DNA of 28,095 nt, taken from contig CBDUYR010000036.1 in the NCBI GenBank assembly GCA_965371515.1, positions 1 to 28,095 on the forward strand. Reading direction: 5' to 3'. Positions 5,226 through 19,479 of the stretch are shown here, piece by piece; position 1 is the stretch's first letter; each line of letters begins with the position of its first letter. The position numbers and the translations under genes were made by a program. Origin of the DNA: an uncultured bacterium (lineage in GTDB: Bacteria > Krumholzibacteriota > Krumholzibacteriia > Krumholzibacteriales > Krumholzibacteriaceae). The notes under the pieces are model-generated. The model ran no database searches and was not told the DNA's origin. It saw only the letters and a program-made list of their open reading frames with translations.

Positions 5226-6188
5226 TTATACAACCTCGATCGTCGAGGGTGGTTTTGTTGCGATGTTGTATGTAACGCTCACCACACCCGGCACGCCGCG
5301 AATAATCTCGTCGGCGAGTTTTTCAAGCATATCGAAGGGAAGTCTCGTCGGAGACGCGGTACGCGCATCCACGCTGTCCCAGCAGCGGACCTCTATCTGA
5401 AGACCGAAATCGCGCTTGCCGTCGCGCATGCCCGTGACGCGGTCCTCGTGAAGGATAGCCATATACTGGAAGGCATTCGTGTCCTTCAGCAGGCGTTCGA
5501 CTATCGTGGTTGCCTTGCGAACCAGATCGATGCGCTCGGGCGTGACCGCTCCGACCACCCGCGCGGCGAGTGCCGGTCCCGGGAACGGGATACGGTTGAA
5601 GACCTCCTCCGGAAGGCCGAGTGCCTCGCCGACCTTGCGGACGCCGTCCTTGCGCAGCTGGACGAGAGGCTCGATGATCTTGTATCCGAATGCCTCCTGC
5701 GGATCGATGCCGAGCTGCTCGAAGACGTTATGTTGACGTTTGATGCCTGCGATCGTCTCGTCGACATCGGTCAGGATCGTTCCCTGGAGGAGATGTTTCG
5801 CACCGCTTTCCCTGACCAGGCGTCCGAACACGTCCTTGTAAAACGTCTGCGTTATGCCCTCGCGTTTCTCTTCCGGATCGGTGATACCCTCCAGGGCTGA
5901 GAAAAATTCCTTCCGCGCATCTTCAAGCTCGACCTTGATTCCAAGCTTGCCGAAGAGATCTACCACCCATTCGGGCTCTCCCTCGCGCATGAGCCCGTTT
6001 TCGACAAAGACCGTTTTGAGCCTGTCACCAAGCGCGCGGTGACCGAGCATTGTGACTACCGATGAATCGACGCCTCCCGAAAGGGCGTTGATCGCCAGGC
6101 CGTCCCCGACGGCAGATTTGATCTCTTCGACCTTCTGGTCGATGAAGTGCTGGGTATCGAGATCGAGCACGGTAATCTCGGTGGCCAT
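5226..6188 (-). CDS. GMP synthase ATP-pyrophosphatase + dimerisation subunit (GuaA subunit B-like; no glutaminase domain)
   Basis: PP-loop ALSGGVDSSV, VENGLMREGE, GITDPEEKR, LQGTILTD, PFPGPALAAR, C-terminal TKPPSTIE; 320 aa; GGAGG RBS. Confidence 0.85.
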   Translation of the reverse strand: MATEITVLDLDTQHFIDQKVEEIKSAVGDGLAINALSGGVDSSVVTMLGHRALGDRLKTVFVENGLMREGEPEWVVDLFGKLGIKVELEDARKEFFSALEGITDPEEKREGITQTFYKDVFGRLVRESGAKHLLQGTILTDVDETIAGIKRQHNVFEQLGIDPQEAFGYKIIEPLVQLRKDGVRKVGEALGLPEEVFNRIPFPGPALAARVVGAVTPERIDLVRKATTIVERLLKDTNAFQYMAILHEDRVTGMRDGKRDFGLQIEVRCWDSVDARTASPTRLPFDMLEKLADEIIRGVPGVVSVTYNIATKPPSTIEVV

Positions 6189-7994: not shown

Positions 7995-8128
7995 CTAATA
8001 ATAACAATTAAAAAGAAAGCAACACTCTGATTATGTAGGTTATATGCAGAAGCTGGAAAATGACGCTTCGTGATTGAATATATAGAGTCCATGATTTATT
8101 GGGTGCGGTTTTAAGAAGTCAGGAATTA

Positions 8129-8158
8129 TTGACGTAAGCGATTTTTTTCCTGTAGATT
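8129..8158 (+). promoter_or_regulatory. Putative sigma70 promoter of lipoprotein gene
   Basis: TTGACG-18 nt-TAGATT; AAGGAGG RBS downstream. Confidence 0.4.
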
Positions 8159-8196
8159 GCGAGTCGAATGAATCAACGGGTACAAAGGAGGAATGA

Positions 8197-8808
8197 ATGC
8201 GTAGATTTTTCGGTCTATTCTGCCTGGTAATCGTTATGGTAGCGGCCGGATGTGATTCGGACGAAACTATAACCGGTGAAATCCCGATCGCTGATATCGA
8301 CGGCCTTCGCGTCGAGCTTCCCTGCATTGGAACCGGCACAGCCGATGTTAACTGCGCGACGCCAGACGCCGACGAGGGATCTACTACGATCGACGGCGAG
8401 GACGGGACGACGTATAATGTGACGATCAGACTTCGTGGCCTGGTAGAACAGAAGACGTATACCGACTATACCAACCAGGACGGGATGTGGGTCGAGGGGG
8501 GAGCTCCCGACGGGGGTTCGTTCAACATCTTCAGGCTCCATGTCTCCTCGCCGGAAATAATCTATTACCTGAATGCCGGATCCTCGTACATCGACGAGTG
8601 CTTCGTGCTCGATATCGAGAAGACGATAGTGATGAATCACGGCGCTACGCTGACGCTGCTGGCCGATGCGGGAGGAGACGCCCTCTCTACGAAAAACAGG
8701 GACGACAACGGAGATCCGATCGTCGTCAACGGAGTGCCTCCATACCCGTACCCGTTCGACGGACAGTTTGTGCAGCTGGACATCGTAGACGTTACGATCA
8801 ATCACTGA
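8197..8808 (+). CDS. Hypothetical lipoprotein
   Basis: Signal peptide with lipobox AAGC-D; strong RBS AAGGAGG; acidic beta-rich mature part. Confidence 0.8.
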   Translation: MRRFFGLFCLVIVMVAAGCDSDETITGEIPIADIDGLRVELPCIGTGTADVNCATPDADEGSTTIDGEDGTTYNVTIRLRGLVEQKTYTDYTNQDGMWVEGGAPDGGSFNIFRLHVSSPEIIYYLNAGSSYIDECFVLDIEKTIVMNHGATLTLLADAGGDALSTKNRDDNGDPIVVNGVPPYPYPFDGQFVQLDIVDVTINH

Positions 8809-8847
8809 GCGATAATGTAGTTGTAGAGGCCTGAAGCCCGGGAGGGG

Positions 8848-9888
8848 CTACTTCGAGAACTCCGCGGCGAGCGCCCAGTAGGGGTCGGTCACTGGGTGCT
8901 CGAGGTCCGATTCTTCGCCGTTGTGGACGATCGTGAGGCCATCGCTCCCGGGGACTATCTCTCCGCAGACTGCTCCTGGAATGCTGTTTTCTTCGAGAGC
9001 TGTCACCAGTTCGTCCGCCTCATCCGCGGCGACGACCGCTATGAGGGTTCCCTCGCTTATAGCGCTTAACATATCGAATTCGAACAGATCGGCAGTCTTC
9101 TGCACAACGGGCTGGACCGGTATGAGGTCCTGCTCGATCCGCAGGCCGTAGGAACCGGCCCTGGCCATCTCGTGCAGCCCGCCGAGTATCCCGCACTCGG
9201 TCGCATCGTGCATGACGTGCACTCCGGGAAACTCTCTCGCGATGATGCAGTCGTCGAGGACTGACATCTGCTCGAAGACACCCGCGGCGTCTCTCTGGAA
9301 ATCCTCGCCGCCTGCCGATACAAACTTCCCGGGGAAGAGCACGGCAAGCAGTCCTGTGGCCTCGATCGCCGGTCCCTTTGTGATAACGATCCTGTCCCCG
9401 ACAGCGGCCCTGTGGGGCCCCCTCAGATCGGCTTCATCGCCGATGGCAATGGCAGTTGCTCCTCCGACCATGGGATAATTGCAACCGGTATACCGCGCGG
9501 TATGCCCCGTAACGATGCTTATCCCGTACTTTACCGATTCCTCGTGTACGGCGTTCCACATCTCTTCGATCTGTTCCTCTGTCATCTCCGGCGGCAGGTT
9601 GAGGTCGATGGCGAGATGCTTCGGGGGAAGCCCCGAGACAGCCACATCGCAGAAGATGATATGGAATGCGAACCAGGCGGCCCTGTCGAATCCGAATGCC
9701 GGGACGATGAAGAAAGGATCGGTCGACATGGCGATTGCCTGCCCGCCGACACGGATCACGCCGTAATCGACGCCGTGGCGCGGGCCGATGATGATGTCAT
9801 CGTCAGTGACTCCGAGCCGCGGGTAGATCACGCGATCGAAGAACTGTGGGTGGATCTTGCCGAGTTCGGGAAGTTTTTCCTGGTTCAT
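8848..9888 (-). CDS. AIR synthase (PurM)-superfamily protein, ThiL/HypE-related; probable thiamine salvage kinase
   Basis: GVDYGVI, MSTDP, CDVAVSG, IVTGHT, GDRIVITKG, MHDATECG..GGL.E.A, SEGTL; no HypE C-terminal PRIC; TPP riboswitch directly upstream. Confidence 0.85.
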   Translation of the reverse strand: MNQEKLPELGKIHPQFFDRVIYPRLGVTDDDIIIGPRHGVDYGVIRVGGQAIAMSTDPFFIVPAFGFDRAAWFAFHIIFCDVAVSGLPPKHLAIDLNLPPEMTEEQIEEMWNAVHEESVKYGISIVTGHTARYTGCNYPMVGGATAIAIGDEADLRGPHRAAVGDRIVITKGPAIEATGLLAVLFPGKFVSAGGEDFQRDAAGVFEQMSVLDDCIIAREFPGVHVMHDATECGILGGLHEMARAGSYGLRIEQDLIPVQPVVQKTADLFEFDMLSAISEGTLIAVVAADEADELVTALEENSIPGAVCGEIVPGSDGLTIVHNGEESDLEHPVTDPYWALAAEFSK

Positions 9889-9892
9889 GCTT

Positions 9893-9992
9893 GCTCCCTC
9901 CGCAGGTCCTGGCCTGATCAGGTTCGACGGGTCCCCGGATCTCCTCCAGGTTCTCAGCCCCGGTATAGTCTCGTCATGGGCTCCCCGGTTTG
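9893..9992 (-). ncRNA. TPP riboswitch (THI element)
   Basis: Minus strand: CCGGGGAGCCC...GGGGCTGAGA-(P3a CCTGGA/TCCGGG)-GACCCGTCGAACCTGATCAGG-CCAGGA-CCTGCGGAGGGAG; conserved UGAGA, ACCUGAU and GCGnAGGGA elements in the correct order and pairing. Confidence 0.93.
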
Positions 9993-10004
9993 TGTTTCAA
10001 CGTG

Positions 10005-10033
10005 ATGATATTGCAGGGAAAACGGACTGTCAA
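10005..10033 (-). promoter_or_regulatory. sigma70 promoter driving the TPP riboswitch/PurM-like gene
   Basis: Minus strand TTGACA-17 nt-TATCAT; predicted start a few nt before the aptamer. Confidence 0.75.
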
Positions 10034-10184
10034 CAGGACTGTTCCCTGAATCTGGATGACGGGAAATGGTTTGTGCGGATGGACGCGGAGGCGGCAGGAC
10101 GCTGCAGCTTCACGGCCGACATCACCGGCAGTGCTTTCGATAGGTGTCCGTCCGGAACCAGGCCTGCTGGAATGACGTTAACCG

Positions 10185-10739
10185 CTAGAACCTGAAGCCG
10201 ATATTAACGAGTCGTATGATCGGCAGGCCGGCATTTGCGTCCTCGAGGTCGCCGCCGAAGTATCGGACCGCGCCTAAGCCCATGCTGACGGCGAATCTGT
10301 GCGTTTCGCCGAGGAGCCAGGTGTAACCGACGTCCATGCCGAATCCGTAGGTGGTTCCCTTTTCAGAGATATCCGTGACCGAATTCTTAATCTCCACACT
10401 GTATATACCCAGCCTGCCGCCGAAATAAAATCCTCCGGGCGCTTTTCCCGAGGGGTAGTATCTGTAAAACAGGCTGCCGCCGGCGTAGGTCTCTTCGTCG
10501 ATTTTGTCGTCGTCTTCGAATGTGACATATGATCCGGCGAATCCCACGGTGCCGTTTTTCGCGACCCTCAGTTCGTACTCGATGTTGTACCAGTTGAAGA
10601 GGAAGAGGAAGGGATTGGTCGTGATCAGGTGCCTGTAAGAATCAATGCCTGTCTCCTGATCCTGAGCGGCGACGGGTACACTCATGAAGACCATAACGAG
10701 AATCAATCCGAAAACCGAAAGACAATGCGTTCTGTTCAT
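10185..10739 (-). CDS. Small outer-membrane beta-barrel protein (DUF3575-like)
   Basis: Signal peptide ending VAA; ITTNPF...NIEYE, YRYYP, GFYFGGR, DVGYTWL, terminal NIGFRF (aromatic C-terminus); start ATG 10739 after AAAGGCGGAG. Confidence 0.75.
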   Translation of the reverse strand: MNRTHCLSVFGLILVMVFMSVPVAAQDQETGIDSYRHLITTNPFLFLFNWYNIEYELRVAKNGTVGFAGSYVTFEDDDKIDEETYAGGSLFYRYYPSGKAPGGFYFGGRLGIYSVEIKNSVTDISEKGTTYGFGMDVGYTWLLGETHRFAVSMGLGAVRYFGGDLEDANAGLPIIRLVNIGFRF

Positions 10740-10868: not shown

Positions 10869-12095
10869 TCATTTGAATTCGACGAAGTCGAAATCGTCCC
10901 AGTCGATCTCGATCTCCTCGCCCGAGTCGAGGATAACGAAGATTCCCTTGTTGTCGTCGTCGACATCGTTCGATCCCTTGACCTTGAACTCGTGGCCGTC
11001 CCACAGGGTGATTATGGCCGAGCAGCAGCCCTTGCGCCGGATCGTGCTGATATTTCCCAGCTCGATGTCCATCTCGACACCCCTGAACTCGGTGTCGATG
11101 ATCTCCCAGGTGTATTCCTCGTCGTCGTCCCACCGGATGTGGCCCGTATACGACTCTCCCGAATCGGTGTGTACAGTTCCTTCGAGAAGCTTGCCGCCGT
11201 CAAAACGGTTGTACTCGACCGGGGCAGACGATTCCTCGAAATCGATGCGGTCGAACTCGTCCCAGCCGACCTTGACTACGCCGAAGTCTTCGACGAAGAT
11301 GGAAATTCCCCTGTTGGAGCTGTTTACGTCGTTAGTGCCTTTCAGCGTGAGCTCGTCACCATTCTTCATGGTGACTCGCGCGCTGCTCGAACTGCGGCGC
11401 TCGATCGCTCTGATCTTGCCGAAGGGGATCTCGCGGTCGCGGCTGCGATGCTCGCCGTCCAGGATGTCGCCTGTAAGCACCTCGTCGGCGTCCCAGCAGA
11501 CCCACCCGGTGAATGTGTCGCCCTTGCGAGTCGTAAGTGTCCCGTAGAGCCTGTCTCCGAAGTCCGAATAGACCTCGTATCCCCCCTGGCTGAATTCGAT
11601 CCGGTCGATGTCCTCCCAGTCGAGTTCGATCTCGCCTTCGTCGGGATCCTCCACGATTATACCGCGGATGTTGTCGCCGATGTCGGTCGAGCTGGCCTTG
11701 ACTTCCATTTCCTCGCCCGACTTGAAGATAAGCAGGGCGGCATCGTCTTCGATAAACTCGATTGCCTCGAGGTGGCCGAACGCTACAGTGCACTGAGCAG
11801 ACATGTTATAGCTGCCTTTTGTTCTCACCTTACCGATGCGTACGCCGAAAATGTAGATCGATTTGACGTGCTCATCGTCCTTGTGCCTGCGCCTGGTGAG
11901 CTCGAGCTCCTTCGTACAGTCGATCATGTCGACCCACGACGCCTCGTTCGAGTCCCACCTGATAAGGCCCTCGTACTTGTCCCCATCCGATGTGATCACC
12001 CGGCCGTGGATCCTTCCCCGCCCGTCGGCAAACGAGGGAGAGGCCGCCGTTACGGCGAGGACGAGGATTGCGCCTATCGTCAGGATCTTGTTCAT
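10869..12095 (-). CDS. Secreted hypothetical protein made of three tandem ~110-150 aa repeats
   Basis: Signal peptide ending SFA; motif G.(V/L).T..G..(Y/F).G.(I/V).WD..E and W..(I/F)D.(I/V).F each occur three times; ATGA overlap with RND stop; GGAGGT RBS. Confidence 0.85.
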   Translation of the reverse strand: MNKILTIGAILVLAVTAASPSFADGRGRIHGRVITSDGDKYEGLIRWDSNEASWVDMIDCTKELELTRRRHKDDEHVKSIYIFGVRIGKVRTKGSYNMSAQCTVAFGHLEAIEFIEDDAALLIFKSGEEMEVKASSTDIGDNIRGIIVEDPDEGEIELDWEDIDRIEFSQGGYEVYSDFGDRLYGTLTTRKGDTFTGWVCWDADEVLTGDILDGEHRSRDREIPFGKIRAIERRSSSSARVTMKNGDELTLKGTNDVNSSNRGISIFVEDFGVVKVGWDEFDRIDFEESSAPVEYNRFDGGKLLEGTVHTDSGESYTGHIRWDDDEEYTWEIIDTEFRGVEMDIELGNISTIRRKGCCSAIITLWDGHEFKVKGSNDVDDDNKGIFVILDSGEEIEIDWDDFDFVEFK

Positions 12096-15000
12096 ACCGA
12101 TAACCTCCGTTCATGTTCGGTGGGCGATGACTGCGTGCCCTTTGCCTTTGCGATCACCCTGCGCGACCAGTTTCTCAAGTCGTCGAGCAGTGAGTATATG
12201 GTAGGCAGGACGAGCAGTGTGATCACCGTTGAGAATGTTAACCCGCCGACTATGGCTCGCGCCATGGGATAATACGGGGGGCCGTTTCCGCCTATTTCGG
12301 TTGTTACTATGCATAGCGGCACGAGGCTGAGCACCGTCGTGCCCGCGGTCATCAGAATCGGGCGCAGGCGGTCGCGCCCGGCCCGCACTATGGCATCGTG
12401 CCGGGACAGGCCTCTGCTGCGCAGATGATTGATGTGATCGACAAGAACGATGCCGTTGTTGACGACGACACCGATGAGTATCAGTATGCCTATCATTCCC
12501 ATGATCGACATCTTCGTTCCGGTGAACAGGTAAAACCAGTAGACGCCGACGATGGAGAATAATATCTGTGTCCAGATGGCGGTGGGGAAGAGGATGGATT
12601 CGAACAGCGAGGCCATCACGAAGTAGATCAGCACCAGCGCGAGCAGGAGATTTATCAACATCGTCTGGAGGGCCTCCTGCTCGTGATCGAAGCTCTCTCC
12701 AAAATTCCAGGAGTATCCTGCGGGGAAATTGTATTTTCCGAGCACGCCGGAGATCAATTTCTGCGCATCTCCTTTTGTGACGTCGGTCAGATTTGCGGTC
12801 ACTCCCAGCGATGTTGTCCTGTTCTCGCGAGAGATGTTGCGCGGTCCTCGGCGAATCCGGAAATCGGCCAGCGAGGCGAGTTTTACGGTCCTGCCGTTTC
12901 TCGCGTGGAGAGGGAGGTTCTTCAGCTGGTCGAGCGTCTCCCTGTCTTTTTCCTGGAATTCGAGGCGGATATCGATTTCGCCCGATTCACCATGGAATTT
13001 CCTCAGATTGACGCCACGCATCGCAGCCGAGATGACGCTGGCGATCTCACGCGTTGTGAATCCGTACTGCCTGGCTCTCTGGCGGTCGACCACTATCTGG
13101 ACTTCCTTTTCGCCGATCTCTGCCTCGGAGCGAACGTCGGAGAATCCGGGGATCTGACCGAGGCTCCAGGCGACATCACGCGAGAGCTCTGACAGTCTCT
13201 CGCTCGACTTGCCGGTGAGCTGAACACGGATCGATGTCCCGCCGCCGCCCTGGTTGCGCCAGGTGAAAGATGGGTTGGCGATTGCCAGTTTCGGCAATCC
13301 TTCTTTTATCTCTTCCTTGATCTCCTTGGTCGATTTTTTTGTCCCATTGCCTTTTACCAGAAGGATCGTCGACATCGCGTAGTCGTTCTGGAAGTAGCTG
13401 TAGACTGATTCAATTTCGAACTTATCCTGATTCTCGAAGAGATACTTTTCGTATTCGGTGACTGCCGCCTCGACCTTCTCGACGGTATAGCTGCCGTTGA
13501 TGTGATAATGAAGCCTTATACGCCTGTCCTCCGGTTCGTCAAACATCTCCATCTGTACAAACTTCATCGGAATGGCGATGCTCAGGAGAAGACCAATAAT
13601 AATTCCAACGGTTGCCTTTCGGTGCCGCATCGTCCATTCGAGGGCGCCGGCGTATCTCCTGATAAGTTTGTCGATGACGGTCTTTTTCGTCATCGGTTTC
13701 GGCGGTCTGATCTTCGACGAGAGCAACGGCACGATCGTCTGTGCGAGGAGCAGGGAGACGCCGAGCGCTATACAGATCGTGATCCCGACATGCTTGAGGT
13801 ATATCGATATATCATTGTTTGCCCCTACGATGTTGGGGAGGAAGACTATCGCGGTTGTCATGGTCCCCGCCGTGATCGCCAGCGAGACCTCGCTGACGCC
13901 GGTGTTGATCGATTCCGTCGAATGTGGATCTGCGAGCTGATGACGGTGTATGCTCTCGGTCACAACGACGGCATTGTCCACCAGCATGCCAATAGCGAGC
14001 ATCAGTCCCATCATCGACAGGATGTTCAGCGTCAGTCCGCTGAAATACATGAACGTCAAGGTGATCATCAGCGACAATGGTACGGCAAGAGCGACGATAA
14101 ATGTCGTGATGAGGCGCCTCAGAAAAAAGAAAAGGATGAGGACGGCAAGCGAGCCGCCCACCAGTCCCGCCTTCAGCACCTCGTTCAGTGAGCTGGTGAC
14201 TCCCTCGGCGAGGTTGTCCATGTAGTAGATGGTGATCCCCTCCATCTCGGGGATCTTTTTGATCTTTTCGATCTCCTCGACGATCCAGTCGGTCACCTCG
14301 ACGAGATTCGCGCCGCCTTCCTTGAAGACGTTTAGGCCGATCGCGTACTTCTGGTTCAGGTGCCTTCCGTAGTTCTGCTCCGGCTTCTCGTAAGTGATCG
14401 TGGCGATGTCGTTCAGCCTCAGATTGTGCTCACCGACGACGACTTGCCCGATGTCGTCGATCGACTGGAACTCCCCGACCGGCCTTACGACGAATCGCTG
14501 GTTGTGGTCGGTTATCTTCCCGGCCGTCACCATGAAGTTGCTGCGGCGGAGAATCTGCGAGAGACGCCCGATGTCGATCCCGTGCTCGATGATCCTGTCA
14601 GCCGACAGTTTTATCCGGATCTCCTTCTTCTCGACGCCGTACAGATCGACCTTGGAGACGCCCTCGATCCTTTCTATTCGTCTCTTCACGTTTCTGTTGA
14701 GCATGTCGTAGGCGTTTGAGAGGTCGCGGTTGCTCGAGATCCTAAGAGTGAGGATCTCCATGTCGGCTGTGGACCATTTCCTGATAAAGAACCGTTCGAG
14801 ATCATCGGGGAAGAGGTGCCTGATTCCCTCGAGCTTTTCCTTTGCCTCGAGGGCCTTGACGTCGGTGTCGACGCCCCAGTCGAAATTCAGGCGGATCCAC
14901 GCGCCGCCGCTATGAGAGTTTGACTCCATCCTCTTGATCCCGCTGATTGTGGCGATGACCTCCTCGGCGGGCCGCGTGATCTGACGCTCTATCTCCTCGG

Positions 15001-15166
15001 GGGTCGAGCCGGGGTAGGGGATGTCGACAAAGATGAACGGCGCGTCGAGATCGGGGAAGAATTCCAGAGGCAGCAACTTCGCCGATATTACGCCGAGTAC
15101 GATGAAGCAGACGAAGACCATCAGTGTAGTCACCGGTCTGCGGAGTGATGCCCGGGTGAGGTTCAT
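12092..15166 (-). CDS. RND efflux permease (AcrB/AcrD/AcrF family), second subunit
   Basis: RRPVTTLM, GMLVDNAVVVTESI, GVVVNNGIVLVD, RLRPILMT; 1024 aa with 12-TM layout. Confidence 0.95.
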   Translation of the reverse strand: MNLTRASLRRPVTTLMVFVCFIVLGVISAKLLPLEFFPDLDAPFIFVDIPYPGSTPEEIERQITRPAEEVIATISGIKRMESNSHSGGAWIRLNFDWGVDTDVKALEAKEKLEGIRHLFPDDLERFFIRKWSTADMEILTLRISSNRDLSNAYDMLNRNVKRRIERIEGVSKVDLYGVEKKEIRIKLSADRIIEHGIDIGRLSQILRRSNFMVTAGKITDHNQRFVVRPVGEFQSIDDIGQVVVGEHNLRLNDIATITYEKPEQNYGRHLNQKYAIGLNVFKEGGANLVEVTDWIVEEIEKIKKIPEMEGITIYYMDNLAEGVTSSLNEVLKAGLVGGSLAVLILFFFLRRLITTFIVALAVPLSLMITLTFMYFSGLTLNILSMMGLMLAIGMLVDNAVVVTESIHRHQLADPHSTESINTGVSEVSLAITAGTMTTAIVFLPNIVGANNDISIYLKHVGITICIALGVSLLLAQTIVPLLSSKIRPPKPMTKKTVIDKLIRRYAGALEWTMRHRKATVGIIIGLLLSIAIPMKFVQMEMFDEPEDRRIRLHYHINGSYTVEKVEAAVTEYEKYLFENQDKFEIESVYSYFQNDYAMSTILLVKGNGTKKSTKEIKEEIKEGLPKLAIANPSFTWRNQGGGGTSIRVQLTGKSSERLSELSRDVAWSLGQIPGFSDVRSEAEIGEKEVQIVVDRQRARQYGFTTREIASVISAAMRGVNLRKFHGESGEIDIRLEFQEKDRETLDQLKNLPLHARNGRTVKLASLADFRIRRGPRNISRENRTTSLGVTANLTDVTKGDAQKLISGVLGKYNFPAGYSWNFGESFDHEQEALQTMLINLLLALVLIYFVMASLFESILFPTAIWTQILFSIVGVYWFYLFTGTKMSIMGMIGILILIGVVVNNGIVLVDHINHLRSRGLSRHDAIVRAGRDRLRPILMTAGTTVLSLVPLCIVTTEIGGNGPPYYPMARAIVGGLTFSTVITLLVLPTIYSLLDDLRNWSRRVIAKAKGTQSSPTEHERRLSV

Positions 15167-15178
15167 ATCCAGATCTTT

Positions 15179-18100
15179 CTATTTCTTCCTGTCGAATAGT
15201 GTGTAGACGACAGGTATAACTATCAGCGTGAGAAGAGTCGAAACGGTCAGCCCTCCGATGACGGTGATCGCCATAGGGGCTCTGACCTCTGCGCCCTCTC
15301 CTATCCCTATCGCGAGAGGGAGGAGGCCCAGTGCAGTCGTGAGCGTTGTCATCAGGATCGGGCGCAGCCTCGACTTGCCGCCCTCGAGTATCGCGGAGAT
15401 CTTGTCCATCCCGCTCTCACGGAGCTGGTTAATCAGGTCGATCAGCACGATCGCGTTATTCACCACAATTCCTGCCAGGAGTATAAGCCCGATGAATACA
15501 ACGACGCTTATCGTCGATCCGGTGATGTACAGGGCCCATACCGCTCCGATCAGCGCGAGAGGAATGGTGAACAGGATCACGAACGGGTGGAGGAACGACT
15601 CAAACTGCGATGCCATGACAAGGTATACGAGGAACACGGCGAGGAGGAGGGCAAACTGGAGCGACCTGAACGACCTGGTCATTTCCTGGTTCTGCCCGGC
15701 GATCCTCACGCCGAGACCGGCCGGCATCGGAATGCCAGCGATGATTCCGTTGATCTCCTCGGCAGCCGTACCCAGGTCGCCGTAGTTGAGGTTGGCCGAC
15801 ACGAGAGCCACGCGCTCCTGGTCTACGCGCCTGATCTCGCCCGGTCCGGTGTCGAGCGTGATGTCAGCGACCGCTTCGAGCGTCACGGGCCGCTCGCTCT
15901 CGGGGTTTATGATGAGCTTGCGGATCTTGTCGACCGAGTTCCTGTCAGATTCCTTCGCGCGTACGAGGATGTCGATCTTCCTGTCGCGCCATGAGTATTG
16001 CGAGGCGACATCGCCGCGGACCTTGCTCACGACCCGTTCGGCAATCTCGTAGACCTGGAAGCCGAGGGAGGCGGCCTTCTCGCGGTCGAACTTTATCTGT
16101 ATCTCGGGATGCCCCGATTTCATAGTCGATTTCACGTCTGCGAAGCGGGAATTCGCCTCGAGCTTCGAGGCTATCTCGTTGCTTACCTTTCTCAGGCTCC
16201 GTAGATCGTAGCCAGCGACCTCGATTTCGACGGGAGTCTTGAACGTGAACAGAGTCGGCCTCGAGAACTTGTACTGGAGGTCGGGGACCGCCTGGAGATC
16301 ATTCCTCATCAGGCCCATCACGCGGTCCTCGTCCTCGCGCATGGCGCCTGGGTGGAGGACGACACTCAGCTCGCCCCAGTTCTCACCGCCCTGCTCGGGA
16401 TTGGCGTCCATCCTGTTGCCAGTGCCTGCGACGGAGAAGATCGTCTTGATGTCGGCGATTTCGGATGAGGCATTCTGGACGCTCTTGATCGCCCGATCGG
16501 TTACCTCGAGAGGAGTGCCGGGGGAAAGGCGGAACTCGACGCGGAACTCTCCCTGCGAAAGCTGCGGGATCAGTTCGACGCCAAGCTTCGGTACGAGGAG
16601 CATCGTCGCACCGAAGAGGACAAGCGCGACGGCAATGACTCTGCCCTTGTTGTCGAGGGACCAGGCAAGCATGCCGGAGTACGATTTCTCGACGGCGGTG
16701 TATCCCTTCGTGAACAGCTTCAGCAGGGGATTGATGAGGATCATGACGATCCTCGATATGCTCCTGACAATCCCTATGACAAGCCTGGTGAGGAATACGG
16801 GGATCGTCATGAAGATTACCCTGCCGGCAGATCTCATCCAGCGCCCGACGCGTCTCTTCGGTTCCTTTTTCGGCGCCGGCTCGACGGGCGGTTCCTTCTT
16901 CGCCTGCAGGGAAGCAAGCATGGGAATCAGCGTCAGCGCAACGACGAGCGAGGCGAGCAGGGCGAACGTCACGGTGAGCGCCTGGTCTCTGAAGAGTTGT
17001 CCCGAGATTCCCGAGACGAAAACGAGGGGCAGGAACACGGCTACGGTGGTCAGGGTGGATGCTGTGACGGCCTTATCGACCTCGCCGGCCCCGTCGCGGG
17101 CAGCGTCCAGGACGCTCTTTCCCATCGCCCGGTGCCGCGAGATGTTTTCCAGCACAACGATCGAATTGTCCAGAAGCATTCCTATGCCGAGCGCTATGCC
17201 GCCGAGCGACATTATGTTCAGCGTCAGGTCGGCGCCGTACATCAGATTGAATGTCGCTATTACCGATACCGGTATCGAGAGAGATATGATGACGGTCGCC
17301 CAGAAATTCTGGAGGAAGAGGTAGAGGATGATGATTGCGAGGATGCCTCCGATAACCGCTGCCCGTATAACTTCGTTGATCGCCTGCCGTATGAACGTCG
17401 ATTGATCGTAGACCTTGACGAGCCTGTAACCCTCGGGGAGGATCTGTCTGGCGCGACCGAGATGTTTCTCGACTTCGCGCGCCACGGCGACCGCGTTCGC
17501 GTCGCCTTCCTTGTATATCGCGATCTCGACCGCCTCGCGGCCGTCGAGTCTCGTGATCGCCTCACGTTCCTTGTATCCGTGCCTGACTGTCGCGATGTCG
17601 CGCAGGTAGATCGGCTTGCCGTCTTTCGTGGAGACGATGATGTCGGCGATCTCCTCGATCGATTCGAACTGGTTCAGCGTCCTGACAAGGAACTGCTGCG
17701 TTCCCTCCTCTAGCCTTCCGCCGGAGAGGTTGACGTTCTCCGACTCGATCTGCGAGGCGAGGTCTCCGATCGGCAGGTCGAGTTGAGCGAGGCGCTGCTG
17801 GTCGACGAATATCTGTATCTCGTCCTCGAGTCCGCCGCTGACCTTGACGGCGGCGACACCGAGCGATGCCTCCAGCTCTTTCTTGACCTCCTCCTCGGCG
17901 AACCGTCGGAGGTATTTCAACTCTTCCTCGTCGAACCACTCGCCGGAAGTCCCGGCGCTGTCCGCGTCCGCGTCCTTTTCCCTGTAGAAACCGAATCGCA
18001 TGACCGGATCGAGTGAGGGGTCGAAGCGGAGCAGAGAGGGACGTTCGACGTCGAGCGGCAGCTCAAGTGCGTCGAGCTTCTCGCGCACGTCGAGGCTTGC

Positions 18101-18409
18101 GTAGTCCATGTCGGTTCCCCAGGCAAACTCGAGTATCACGTCGGATTGCCCCGAGCGTGATATCGAGCTGATCCGGTTGACGTTCTTTACAACCCCGAGG
18201 ATCTCCTCGACAGGCTTCGATATGAGGTTTTCTATCTCGGCCGGCGCGGCGCCGGGGTATTCGGTCCGTACGGTCAGTGTGGGGTAGGTAAGCTCGGGGA
18301 GGAGGTTTATCTTCAGGCGGAAGAACGAGACGGCTCCGAAAAGAATTATGGCCAGCGTGAACATAGCGATCGTTACGCGGCGGCGGATGGAGATATCGAT
18401 TATCTTCAT
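15179..18409 (-). CDS. RND efflux permease (AcrB/AcrD/AcrF family), first subunit
   Basis: YPGAAPAEIENLISKPVEE, GMLLDNSIVVLENI, GIVVNNAIVLID, RLRPILMTTLTT; 1076 aa. Confidence 0.95.
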   Translation of the reverse strand: MKIIDISIRRRVTIAMFTLAIILFGAVSFFRLKINLLPELTYPTLTVRTEYPGAAPAEIENLISKPVEEILGVVKNVNRISSISRSGQSDVILEFAWGTDMDYASLDVREKLDALELPLDVERPSLLRFDPSLDPVMRFGFYREKDADADSAGTSGEWFDEEELKYLRRFAEEEVKKELEASLGVAAVKVSGGLEDEIQIFVDQQRLAQLDLPIGDLASQIESENVNLSGGRLEEGTQQFLVRTLNQFESIEEIADIIVSTKDGKPIYLRDIATVRHGYKEREAITRLDGREAVEIAIYKEGDANAVAVAREVEKHLGRARQILPEGYRLVKVYDQSTFIRQAINEVIRAAVIGGILAIIILYLFLQNFWATVIISLSIPVSVIATFNLMYGADLTLNIMSLGGIALGIGMLLDNSIVVLENISRHRAMGKSVLDAARDGAGEVDKAVTASTLTTVAVFLPLVFVSGISGQLFRDQALTVTFALLASLVVALTLIPMLASLQAKKEPPVEPAPKKEPKRRVGRWMRSAGRVIFMTIPVFLTRLVIGIVRSISRIVMILINPLLKLFTKGYTAVEKSYSGMLAWSLDNKGRVIAVALVLFGATMLLVPKLGVELIPQLSQGEFRVEFRLSPGTPLEVTDRAIKSVQNASSEIADIKTIFSVAGTGNRMDANPEQGGENWGELSVVLHPGAMREDEDRVMGLMRNDLQAVPDLQYKFSRPTLFTFKTPVEIEVAGYDLRSLRKVSNEIASKLEANSRFADVKSTMKSGHPEIQIKFDREKAASLGFQVYEIAERVVSKVRGDVASQYSWRDRKIDILVRAKESDRNSVDKIRKLIINPESERPVTLEAVADITLDTGPGEIRRVDQERVALVSANLNYGDLGTAAEEINGIIAGIPMPAGLGVRIAGQNQEMTRSFRSLQFALLLAVFLVYLVMASQFESFLHPFVILFTIPLALIGAVWALYITGSTISVVVFIGLILLAGIVVNNAIVLIDLINQLRESGMDKISAILEGGKSRLRPILMTTLTTALGLLPLAIGIGEGAEVRAPMAITVIGGLTVSTLLTLIVIPVVYTLFDRKK

Positions 18410-19479
18410 TTATTCCCGCCAGCAGGCGTTACGATTTCGACCTTAGTGCTGTCCCTCAGACTGCTCTTGCCCGTCGTGACGATCGTGTCGCCGGGCATGA
18501 GCCCCTCGAGTATCTCCACGTGGGTCGTGTTGGTGTACCCGAGCACGACGTTGCGTTTGTACGCGGTGCTGTCCTGGACGACGAAGACTGCCGATTCGCG
18601 GTCCTCGGCGATGATTGCGTCCTTGGGGGCCAGCGTGGTGCCGACGTGGACGTCGTAGATGATCTTCACTCTGGAAAACATGCCTGGCCTGACGCGGCCG
18701 GTAGTGTCCTTGATCTCCAGGGTCACTTTGACGGTGCCGGTCCTGGAGTCGATCACGGGGCTGATCCGCTTGATGTATCCGGAAAAGTCGACTCCTCCCA
18801 GGGCGTCTATATGGAGTACTGCCTTCTGTCCCGGCTGCATCCTCTCGAGCTGCCTTTCGGGAACGTGCAGGACGGCAATCAGCGGATCGAGCCCGCTGAC
18901 CCTGAAGATGTCCTGGTTCTGCAGGACCATGTTGCCGATCTTGACATTCCTCTCAGCCACAACACCGCTTATCGGGGTCTTGATAGATGTGTACTTGAGG
19001 CTCAGTGCGGCGAGATCGTACGCCGCCTTCTGGCGCTCGTACTCGAACTTGACCTGCTGGTAGACTTCTGTGCTGACAAGGCTCTTCGCATGGAGGTCTT
19101 CGTTTCGCTGGTAGTTGTTCTCCTGCTTTCTCATTTCGGCCTTCGCCTGCTCGAGCTGTACGGCGATCATTTCGTCGTCGAGCTTTGCGAGGACCGTTCC
19201 CGCCTTAACGAAATCGCCCTCTTCGACGTAGATCTGTTCGACGACCCCGCTTACCTTGGCGACGACGCCTGTCTCCTGCTCGGCCTCGACGGTCGCCGTT
19301 CCTGTGAAATACGCCGATATATCGCCCGATTTCACCGCAGCGACCTCGACCGGCACTACCGGTTCCTTGTCCTCTTCGCCGTTCTCCTTCGACTGCGAAT
19401 CCCCGCCGCAGCCGTAAGAAGCTATGGCGAGGGCGGTCAGCACGAGTAGAACCGCCAGGAGGTTTTTTCTGTTTTTCAT
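18406..19479 (-). CDS. RND periplasmic adaptor (membrane fusion protein), lipoprotein
   Basis: Lipobox SYGC; V.AKVSGVVEQIYVEEGDFVKAG.VLAKLD, IKTPISGVV, RPGMF, EILEGL.PGD.IVT.G. Confidence 0.95.
   Translation of the reverse strand: MKNRKNLLAVLLVLTALAIASYGCGGDSQSKENGEEDKEPVVPVEVAAVKSGDISAYFTGTATVEAEQETGVVAKVSGVVEQIYVEEGDFVKAGTVLAKLDDEMIAVQLEQAKAEMRKQENNYQRNEDLHAKSLVSTEVYQQVKFEYERQKAAYDLAALSLKYTSIKTPISGVVAERNVKIGNMVLQNQDIFRVSGLDPLIAVLHVPERQLERMQPGQKAVLHIDALGGVDFSGYIKRISPVIDSRTGTVKVTLEIKDTTGRVRPGMFSRVKIIYDVHVGTTLAPKDAIIAEDRESAVFVVQDSTAYKRNVVLGYTNTTHVEILEGLMPGDTIVTTGKSSLRDSTKVEIVTPAGGNK

Follow-up and report, generated by a model that had tools for sequence, protein, structure and literature searches.

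ThiM, the hydroxyethylthiazole kinase, has a ribokinase fold, and in yeast it is joined to the thiamine-phosphate synthase ThiE in the fusion protein THI6. The PurM superfamily, which is of an unrelated fold, includes a kinase with a thiamine substrate, ThiL, as well as HypE, SelD and PurM itself, and the conserved aspartates of these proteins have roles in metal and ATP binding. Further superfamily members carry the RefSeq label 'AIR synthase family protein', which we take to correspond to the CDD entry PurM-like1 (cd06061). Here we describe a PurM-superfamily protein, termed X, encoded in a 28,095 nt stretch of DNA, referred to as the window, that forms positions 1 to 28,095 of contig CBDUYR010000036.1 (assembly GCA_965371515.1) from an uncultured bacterium of the Krumholzibacteriaceae. 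X is a 346 amino acid protein (8848..9888, minus strand) with the Pfam domains AIRS and AIRS_C, placing it in the PurM superfamily, and it lies behind a thiamine pyrophosphate (TPP) riboswitch. It belongs to an unnamed, uncharacterised, thiamine-linked clade predicted to carry out an established reaction on a fold unrelated to that of the known enzyme: on balance, X is probably a non-orthologous hydroxyethylthiazole kinase that stands in for ThiM.

The gene forms part of a compact unit. A sigma70-type promoter, TTGACA-17-TATCAT (10005..10033, minus strand), matches the consensus at 11 of 12 positions and ranks best among the five promoter-like sites within 8000-10600; of 26 leaders compared, the window copy and those of 25 homologous loci, 19 have a TTGAC-type site in the 70 nt preceding the aptamer, where shuffles lead to an expectation of 0.62. 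The aptamer itself (9878..9997, minus strand) is a member of the known TPP riboswitch class RF00059. It matches the full model (positions 1-105) with 53.7 bits (E 6.5e-10), 0.6 bits short of the Rfam gathering cut-off of 54.3, and a scan of the window at the gathering score returned no matches; nevertheless, no other strong TPP match occurs in the genome, the next candidate scoring 18.7 bits (E 0.46). Like other members of the class, it has the conserved GGGG-AG-CCC, CUGAGA and CCUGAU cores. Across 25 aligned copies, the core helices P2 to P5 are 98.7-100% paired, with every P4 base pair retained (100%), and 11 pairs are changed on both sides, eight of them in the core, a total that none of 500 shuffles equalled; the covarying helices are P3, P3a, P4 and P5. 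The structure was taken from the window copy, and a control using slid partners is therefore biased toward that copy, while single-sequence folding of the leader was uninformative (z 0.29).

The window copy differs from the typical RF00059 element in three respects. The closing helix P1 is weak, being paired in 49% of cells across the 25 copies and marked as non-standard in the Rfam alignment; no separate terminator or sequestering hairpin is present as an expression platform; and the Shine-Dalgarno sequence GGAGGGAG (9894..9901, minus strand) falls within the 3' strand of P4, 5 nt ahead of the ATG. Because the ribosome-binding site forms part of P4 so close to the start codon, the switch appears to act directly on translation, as an OFF switch: bound TPP would stabilise P4 and halt translation, whereas at low TPP the leader would free the ribosome-binding site and allow X to be made. 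Beyond the X gene lies a convergent neighbour (8197..8808, plus strand) encoding 203 amino acids with no Pfam family, which bounds the unit rather than contributing to it, and hence the unit is monocistronic; a search for an intrinsic terminator between the two genes found none. The promoter, aptamer and monocistronic arrangement proposed in an earlier sequence-only reading of this DNA were thus all recovered.

The association of X with thiamine extends well beyond this locus. Among 8000 proteins scored, 5278 from bacteria and archaea matched the X family at E <= 1e-20, many of them labelled as HypE or 'hydrogenase maturation factor'. Forty-six loci from genomes, with identities of 64-94% and 48-50%, were compared; the names in their titles include Candidatus Krumholzibacteriota, Margulisiibacteriota, Zixiibacteriota, Aminicenantes, WOR-3 and Dehalococcoidales. 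An upstream TPP match over the Rfam cut-off was found at 24 of the 46. A leader model built from the window and 24 of the 46 loci, training copies that match by construction, identified 34 of the 46, along with 23 of 80 metagenome loci, these being the best 80 of 584 when ranked against a haloarchaeal-like sequence. In total, a switch was found at 61 of 140 X loci, a thi gene at 25, and one or the other at 72. At a few loci the switch appears eroded: two upstream sequences (L033, L034) score poorly, with mainly the 3' half seemingly left, and three more (L017, L019, L045) do not match the model at all. A copy with 70% identity (L030) comes from a 0.8 Mb assembly (G135) in which ThiC, ThiE and ThiL were not found, and its contig bears the title Patescibacteria; the copy may be mis-binned or a stray transfer.

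Physical linkage to thiamine genes takes two forms. Three clusters of proteins at 50% identity (P0121, P0179 and P0167) comprise X fused to the thiamine-phosphate synthase ThiN, in both orders, and further such fusions occur at L090 and L122; a search for fusions longer than 606 amino acids retrieved a single protein, with a TonB-receptor plug. In addition, X is found in a range of operons: X-tenA-thiE-thiL-thiD (L156, L162), X-thiE-thiD-tenA (L136, L137), X-tenA-thiE (L083, L084), X-thiE-thiD (L126), thiE-X or X-thiE (six loci), X-thiDN (L101, L106, L108) and thi4-X (L128). The first of these, in which representatives of ThiL, TenA, ThiD and ThiE score over their cut-offs, is a complete salvage set apart from a thiazole kinase, the slot that X would fill. 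ThiM was detected at none of the 140 X loci by a search that did recover it at a control locus (L098, thiM-thiE-thiL). In some operons with X, tenA and thiE, a gene for an S-adenosylmethionine-dependent methyltransferase (PF08241) lies between the switch and X (L083:7943-8641, L084:566-1264, L162:1905-2606). The retention of the switch across phyla, the ThiN fusions and the thi operons together strongly support the link between X and thiamine, as the sequence-only reading had proposed.

The pathway encoded by the host genome indicates which step X might perform. This genome (99.6% complete) has ThiC and ThiL, both over cut-off, and a ThiD2-ThiE fusion of the NCBIfam type PRK02615 (C2:97276-98352, minus strand), an arrangement echoed in several other carriers of X, where ThiD2 also precedes ThiE. 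Searches of the same genome for ThiM, ThiG, full-length Thi4, thiamine pyrophosphokinase (TPK), ThiK and TenA found none of them, and three queries recovered no thiamine importer. The loss of thi4 is real. The gene and its promoter region have been deleted in the middle of contig C11 (19004-19083), leaving an 80 bp gap between flanks that are syntenic with those of four close relatives retaining thi4; an assembly gap was ruled out, as the flanking genes are adjacent in mid-contig and the contig contains no N. With ThiC, ThiD2-ThiE and ThiL present, ThiG, Thi4 and ThiM absent and thi4 cleanly deleted, thiazole phosphate is left as the single hole in the pathway. Of the three enzymes whose absence the sequence-only reading proposed to check, ThiM and TPK were not found and ThiL is present.

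The state of the pyrimidine branch bears on two other assignments. X was considered as a stand-in for ThiD, the hydroxymethylpyrimidine phosphate (HMP-P) kinase, since PF08543 had no full-length match in the genome and in view of the ThiN fusions; this was rejected, as the genome's ThiE has a ThiD2 domain and PF08543 is also missing from 7 of 14 ThiC-positive non-carriers. Alternatively, X could catalyse some other salvage or repair step on a breakdown product of thiamine, such as phosphorylation of free hydroxymethylpyrimidine (HMP) or conversion of a thiazole that is carboxylated or whose ring has been opened. The part of one report consulted here describes ThiD2 as phosphorylating HMP-P and not HMP (PMC12345177), most carriers lack a full ThiD (9 of 55 have a PF08543 match), and X does occur in tenA operons. 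However, X shares an operon with a full ThiD or with ThiDN at eight loci, half of the ThiC-positive non-carriers manage without PF08543 as well, and a role in HMP metabolism leaves survival of the thi4 deletion unexplained; a step of this kind seems distinctly improbable.

The distribution of X among genomes shows the same hole. Fifty-five carriers, defined at 45% identity or above, were assembled from 19 members of an even, 121-genome sample of the phylum and 36 of the 46 loci, the other ten being dropped as likely duplicates. The sample also provided 98 non-carriers, all searched for ThiE, ThiG and Thi4, one of which (G048) has a partial X match at a contig end; four genomes with distant matches (around 30% identity) were excluded from both groups; Thi4 is present in each of them and ThiM in one. 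As related genomes are not independent, the counts that follow describe a pattern and not a probability. ThiC was found in 50 of the 55 carriers, ThiE in 45, ThiL in 49 and Thi4 in 11, and ThiG, ThiM and TPK in none. No known source of thiazole was identified in 39 of the 50 ThiC-positive carriers, nor in 32 of the 42 holding both ThiC and ThiE. Within the 121-genome sample, ThiG and Thi4 are both missing from 15 of 19 carriers, versus 3 of 36 ThiE-positive non-carriers; the remaining 33 have one or the other, and the three exceptions are 86-93% complete genomes, searched for ThiE, ThiG and Thi4 only. X was present in none of the 62 ThiE-negative genomes. Similarly, in the host's own family, Thi4 is found in all seven non-carriers but in only 4 of 17 carriers.

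Replacement of thi4 by X behind the same switch was considered and was not supported: the leader model matched only 2 of 20 Thi4 loci and none of 40 ThiC, ThiE and ThiL loci. The 11 carriers with both proteins, together with the thi4-X operon, fit a salvage function operating beside synthesis.

Protein X has the PurM fold as well as the two domains, yet is distinct from the described members of its superfamily. In a phylogeny it forms a clade of its own, apart from HypE, SelD, ThiL and PurM, with the ThiL sequences grouped at a support of 91. Its scores against the family models are 84.4 bits for HypE (TIGR02124, cut-off 251.6), 60.6 for ThiL (TIGR01379, cut-off 184.15) and 44 for SelD (TIGR00476, cut-off 125), and there is no match to PF02110, which excludes it from the ThiM family. 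Five aspartates (D41, D57, D81, D165 and D228) are invariant in 137 of 137 X sequences and in the ThiL, HypE and SelD outgroups. K11 is likewise invariant (135 of 135) and aligns with the start of the match to Escherichia coli SelD, at residue 20. E231, also invariant, occupies the acidic position of ThiL, where HypE has arginine and SelD glycine. Two cysteines near conserved motifs are frequent, C136 in 126 of 137 sequences and C232 in 111.

Database names such as 'hydrogenase maturation factor' raise the question of whether X is a divergent HypE, ThiL or SelD. These are the families against which it scores best, and two carriers (G067, G099) lack ThiL. By contrast, all three scores fall far below their cut-offs, the clades are separate, and the genome encodes its own HypE, SelD and ThiL, each over cut-off, in addition to PurM. 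R227 and R231 of HypE (PDB 3wjp, 2z1e and 2i6r) are replaced in X by histidine and glutamate, and no hyp genes are among the recurring neighbours of X. As the sequence-only reading had noted, the C-terminal cysteine and PRIC motif of HypE are missing, X ending DPYWALAAEFSK (AAEFSK), while the true HypE of this genome, on contig C28, does end PRIC. The companion claim, that X lacks the N-terminal Cys/Sec-x-x-Lys of SelD (PDB 3u0o), was half right: in the N-terminal PELGK the lysine is retained as K11, and it is the Cys/Sec three residues earlier that is absent; the true SelD is on contig C5. X shares only 16% identity with ThiL (PDB 3c9t and 5cc8), has HDATE[CG]G and GHT in place of the D-x-S-D-G and GG[DN] motifs, and possesses H129, H227, K11 and a C-terminal DPYW that are not features of ThiL. 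A divergent member of any of these three families is therefore very improbable.

A functional stand-in for ThiL was also rejected, as the host and 49 of 55 carriers have a ThiL of their own, and at L156 and L162 its gene shares an operon with X. The two carriers without it belong to a family, f8 (G015, G017, G041, G051, G056, G057, G067 and G099), with ThiE in eight of eight genomes, ThiL in none and TPK in none of the four searched; six of the eight lack X, such that this second hole, between thiamine monophosphate (TMP) and TPP, does not track with it.

The 'AIR synthase family protein' label, carried by relatives of X, does not mark a single group; it covers the thiamine-linked clade and, as a minimum, one sister group in which no thiamine context was seen. 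The latter PurM-like sequences (L091-L093, L080 and L081; around 30% identity) lie outside the thiamine clade, with a Haloferax copy by cobalamin genes and an Acaryochloris copy near hyp genes.

From these observations a route can be proposed in which X, as an ATP- and Mg-using enzyme by analogy with its superfamily, supplies thiazole phosphate to the thiamine-phosphate synthase, ThiE or ThiN, as the pathway hole, operons and fusions suggest. In the likeliest chemistry, X would use ATP to phosphorylate salvaged 4-methyl-5-(2-hydroxyethyl)thiazole (HET) on its hydroxyethyl group. In the host, ThiC would form HMP-P, ThiD2 would convert this to the pyrophosphate HMP-PP, X would produce HET phosphate, ThiE would combine the two into TMP and ThiL would complete TPP. 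A HET kinase is favoured because the superfamily already contains ThiL, a kinase of a thiamine substrate, because X retains the acidic residue of ThiL at position 231, because a lone gene is unlikely to constitute a complete synthase, and because X, like salvage genes, can be found alongside Thi4. Judged by genome context, X appears to occupy the slot of ThiM, with which it would share its predicted reaction, its place in the pathway, its tenA/thiE/thiD operon setting and its fusion to a thiamine-phosphate synthase; it differs in its PurM fold, in the absence of PF02110 both from X and from the whole genome, and in that its activity is only predicted. The sequence-only reading had offered HET, thiamine and TMP as substrates, and of these the first fits best and the last can be set aside.

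Phosphorylation of thiamine to TMP, feeding ThiL, is a minority reading that we regard as unlikely. It accords with the lack of TPK in every carrier, and of ThiK in the five searched, where ThiL is common, and structure titles show that the related ThiL binds TMP. It also draws on haloarchaeal copies of X that accompany thiB-type ATP-binding cassette (ABC) importers and the MTH1187 thiamine-binding gene. Of five plasmid regions opened, two, from Haloarcula, have X arranged divergently from genes for a thiamine-binding protein and a thiamine ABC substrate-binding protein, the others having X beside phoA, hyp or cobalamin genes; a homologue on Halobacterium pNRC200 (L079; NC_002608.1, VNG_RS11570) directly follows an alkaline phosphatase gene. 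In the part consulted of a study of these archaea, PhoA is said to assist thiamine salvage, and thiM is reported from just two Haloarcula species, with tenA common (PMC12029414); this rarity of thiM, in a genus with plasmids that have X by thiamine-binding genes, speaks for the HET kinase. A Haloferax thi4 mutant has been found to be rescued by either thiamine or HET, in a report whose consulted part makes no mention of the X family (PMC4215014). Yet a thiamine kinase would leave ThiC and ThiE without thiazole in the 32 carriers described above, X is never found in the ThiE-negative genomes, where all six searched have TPK, three queries found no importer in the host, and the ThiN fusions suggest a substrate upstream of TMP. 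In some subclades of the proposed HET kinase, such as the haloarchaeal copies by thiamine importers, the same hydroxyl on intact thiamine may be a further target of phosphorylation.

The same hole could be filled if X provided the whole, or the committed part, of a third way of making thiazole de novo, one that needs neither ThiG nor Thi4. ATP would be used to activate a carbonyl, which sulfur would then attack to close the ring, much as PurM does with nitrogen, with sulfide or a persulfide relay as donor. Such a route would serve the 39 ThiC-positive carriers without a thiazole source, and no transporter is co-regulated with X; C136 and C232 are frequent near the conserved motifs, and neighbours of X include NifS, NifU, MnmA, CysK, MetY, LarE, FdhD, MOSC, TusA and Rrf2, nearly the same as the list published around suicide Thi4 genes in the part consulted of that paper (PMC13325395). 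However, the sulfur genes used as queries were themselves taken from X loci, inflating their count, and a single identity cluster accounts for 18 of the 25 sulfur-adjacent loci; among the remaining loci, 7 of 90 have such neighbours, close to the frequency in the controls (3 of 60 overall: Thi4 2/20, ThiC 0/20, ThiE 1/12, ThiL 0/8) and to the genome background of 3.9%. Furthermore, X is mostly a lone gene, is accompanied by Thi4 in 11 carriers and is found in tenA salvage operons, and the cysteines are not invariant. De novo synthesis is a rather unlikely alternative to the kinase.

Elsewhere in the window, a stand-alone gene encodes the C-terminal (ATP pyrophosphatase) subunit of GMP synthase (5226-6188, minus strand). 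A further minus-strand group (10869-19479) consists of a membrane-fusion protein, two AcrB-like resistance-nodulation-division (RND) open reading frames and then a 408 amino acid, repeat-like protein with no Pfam family; the RND identity was read from the sequence rather than from a scan.

No assignment of the X family to thiamine metabolism was found in the literature, within a search that covered subscription papers in part and main texts rather than supplements. The regulon tables of a 2017 paper on ThiR in the Journal of Bacteriology may already list an X gene. New here are the clean deletion of thi4, the closing of the pyrimidine branch by ThiD2, the profile of genomes with and without X, and the salvage operons. 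As homologues are present in culturable haloarchaea, the function of X is directly testable. Were X a de novo enzyme, it would add a new biosynthetic path for a universal cofactor, and many anaerobes, bacterial and archaeal, that are at present classed as thiazole auxotrophs would turn out to produce vitamin B1. If it is a HET kinase, a widespread hole in reconstructions of vitamin B1 metabolism would be closed, a second kinase activity would be added to the PurM superfamily, and many uncultured anaerobes would be makers of the pyrimidine that scavenge their thiazole.
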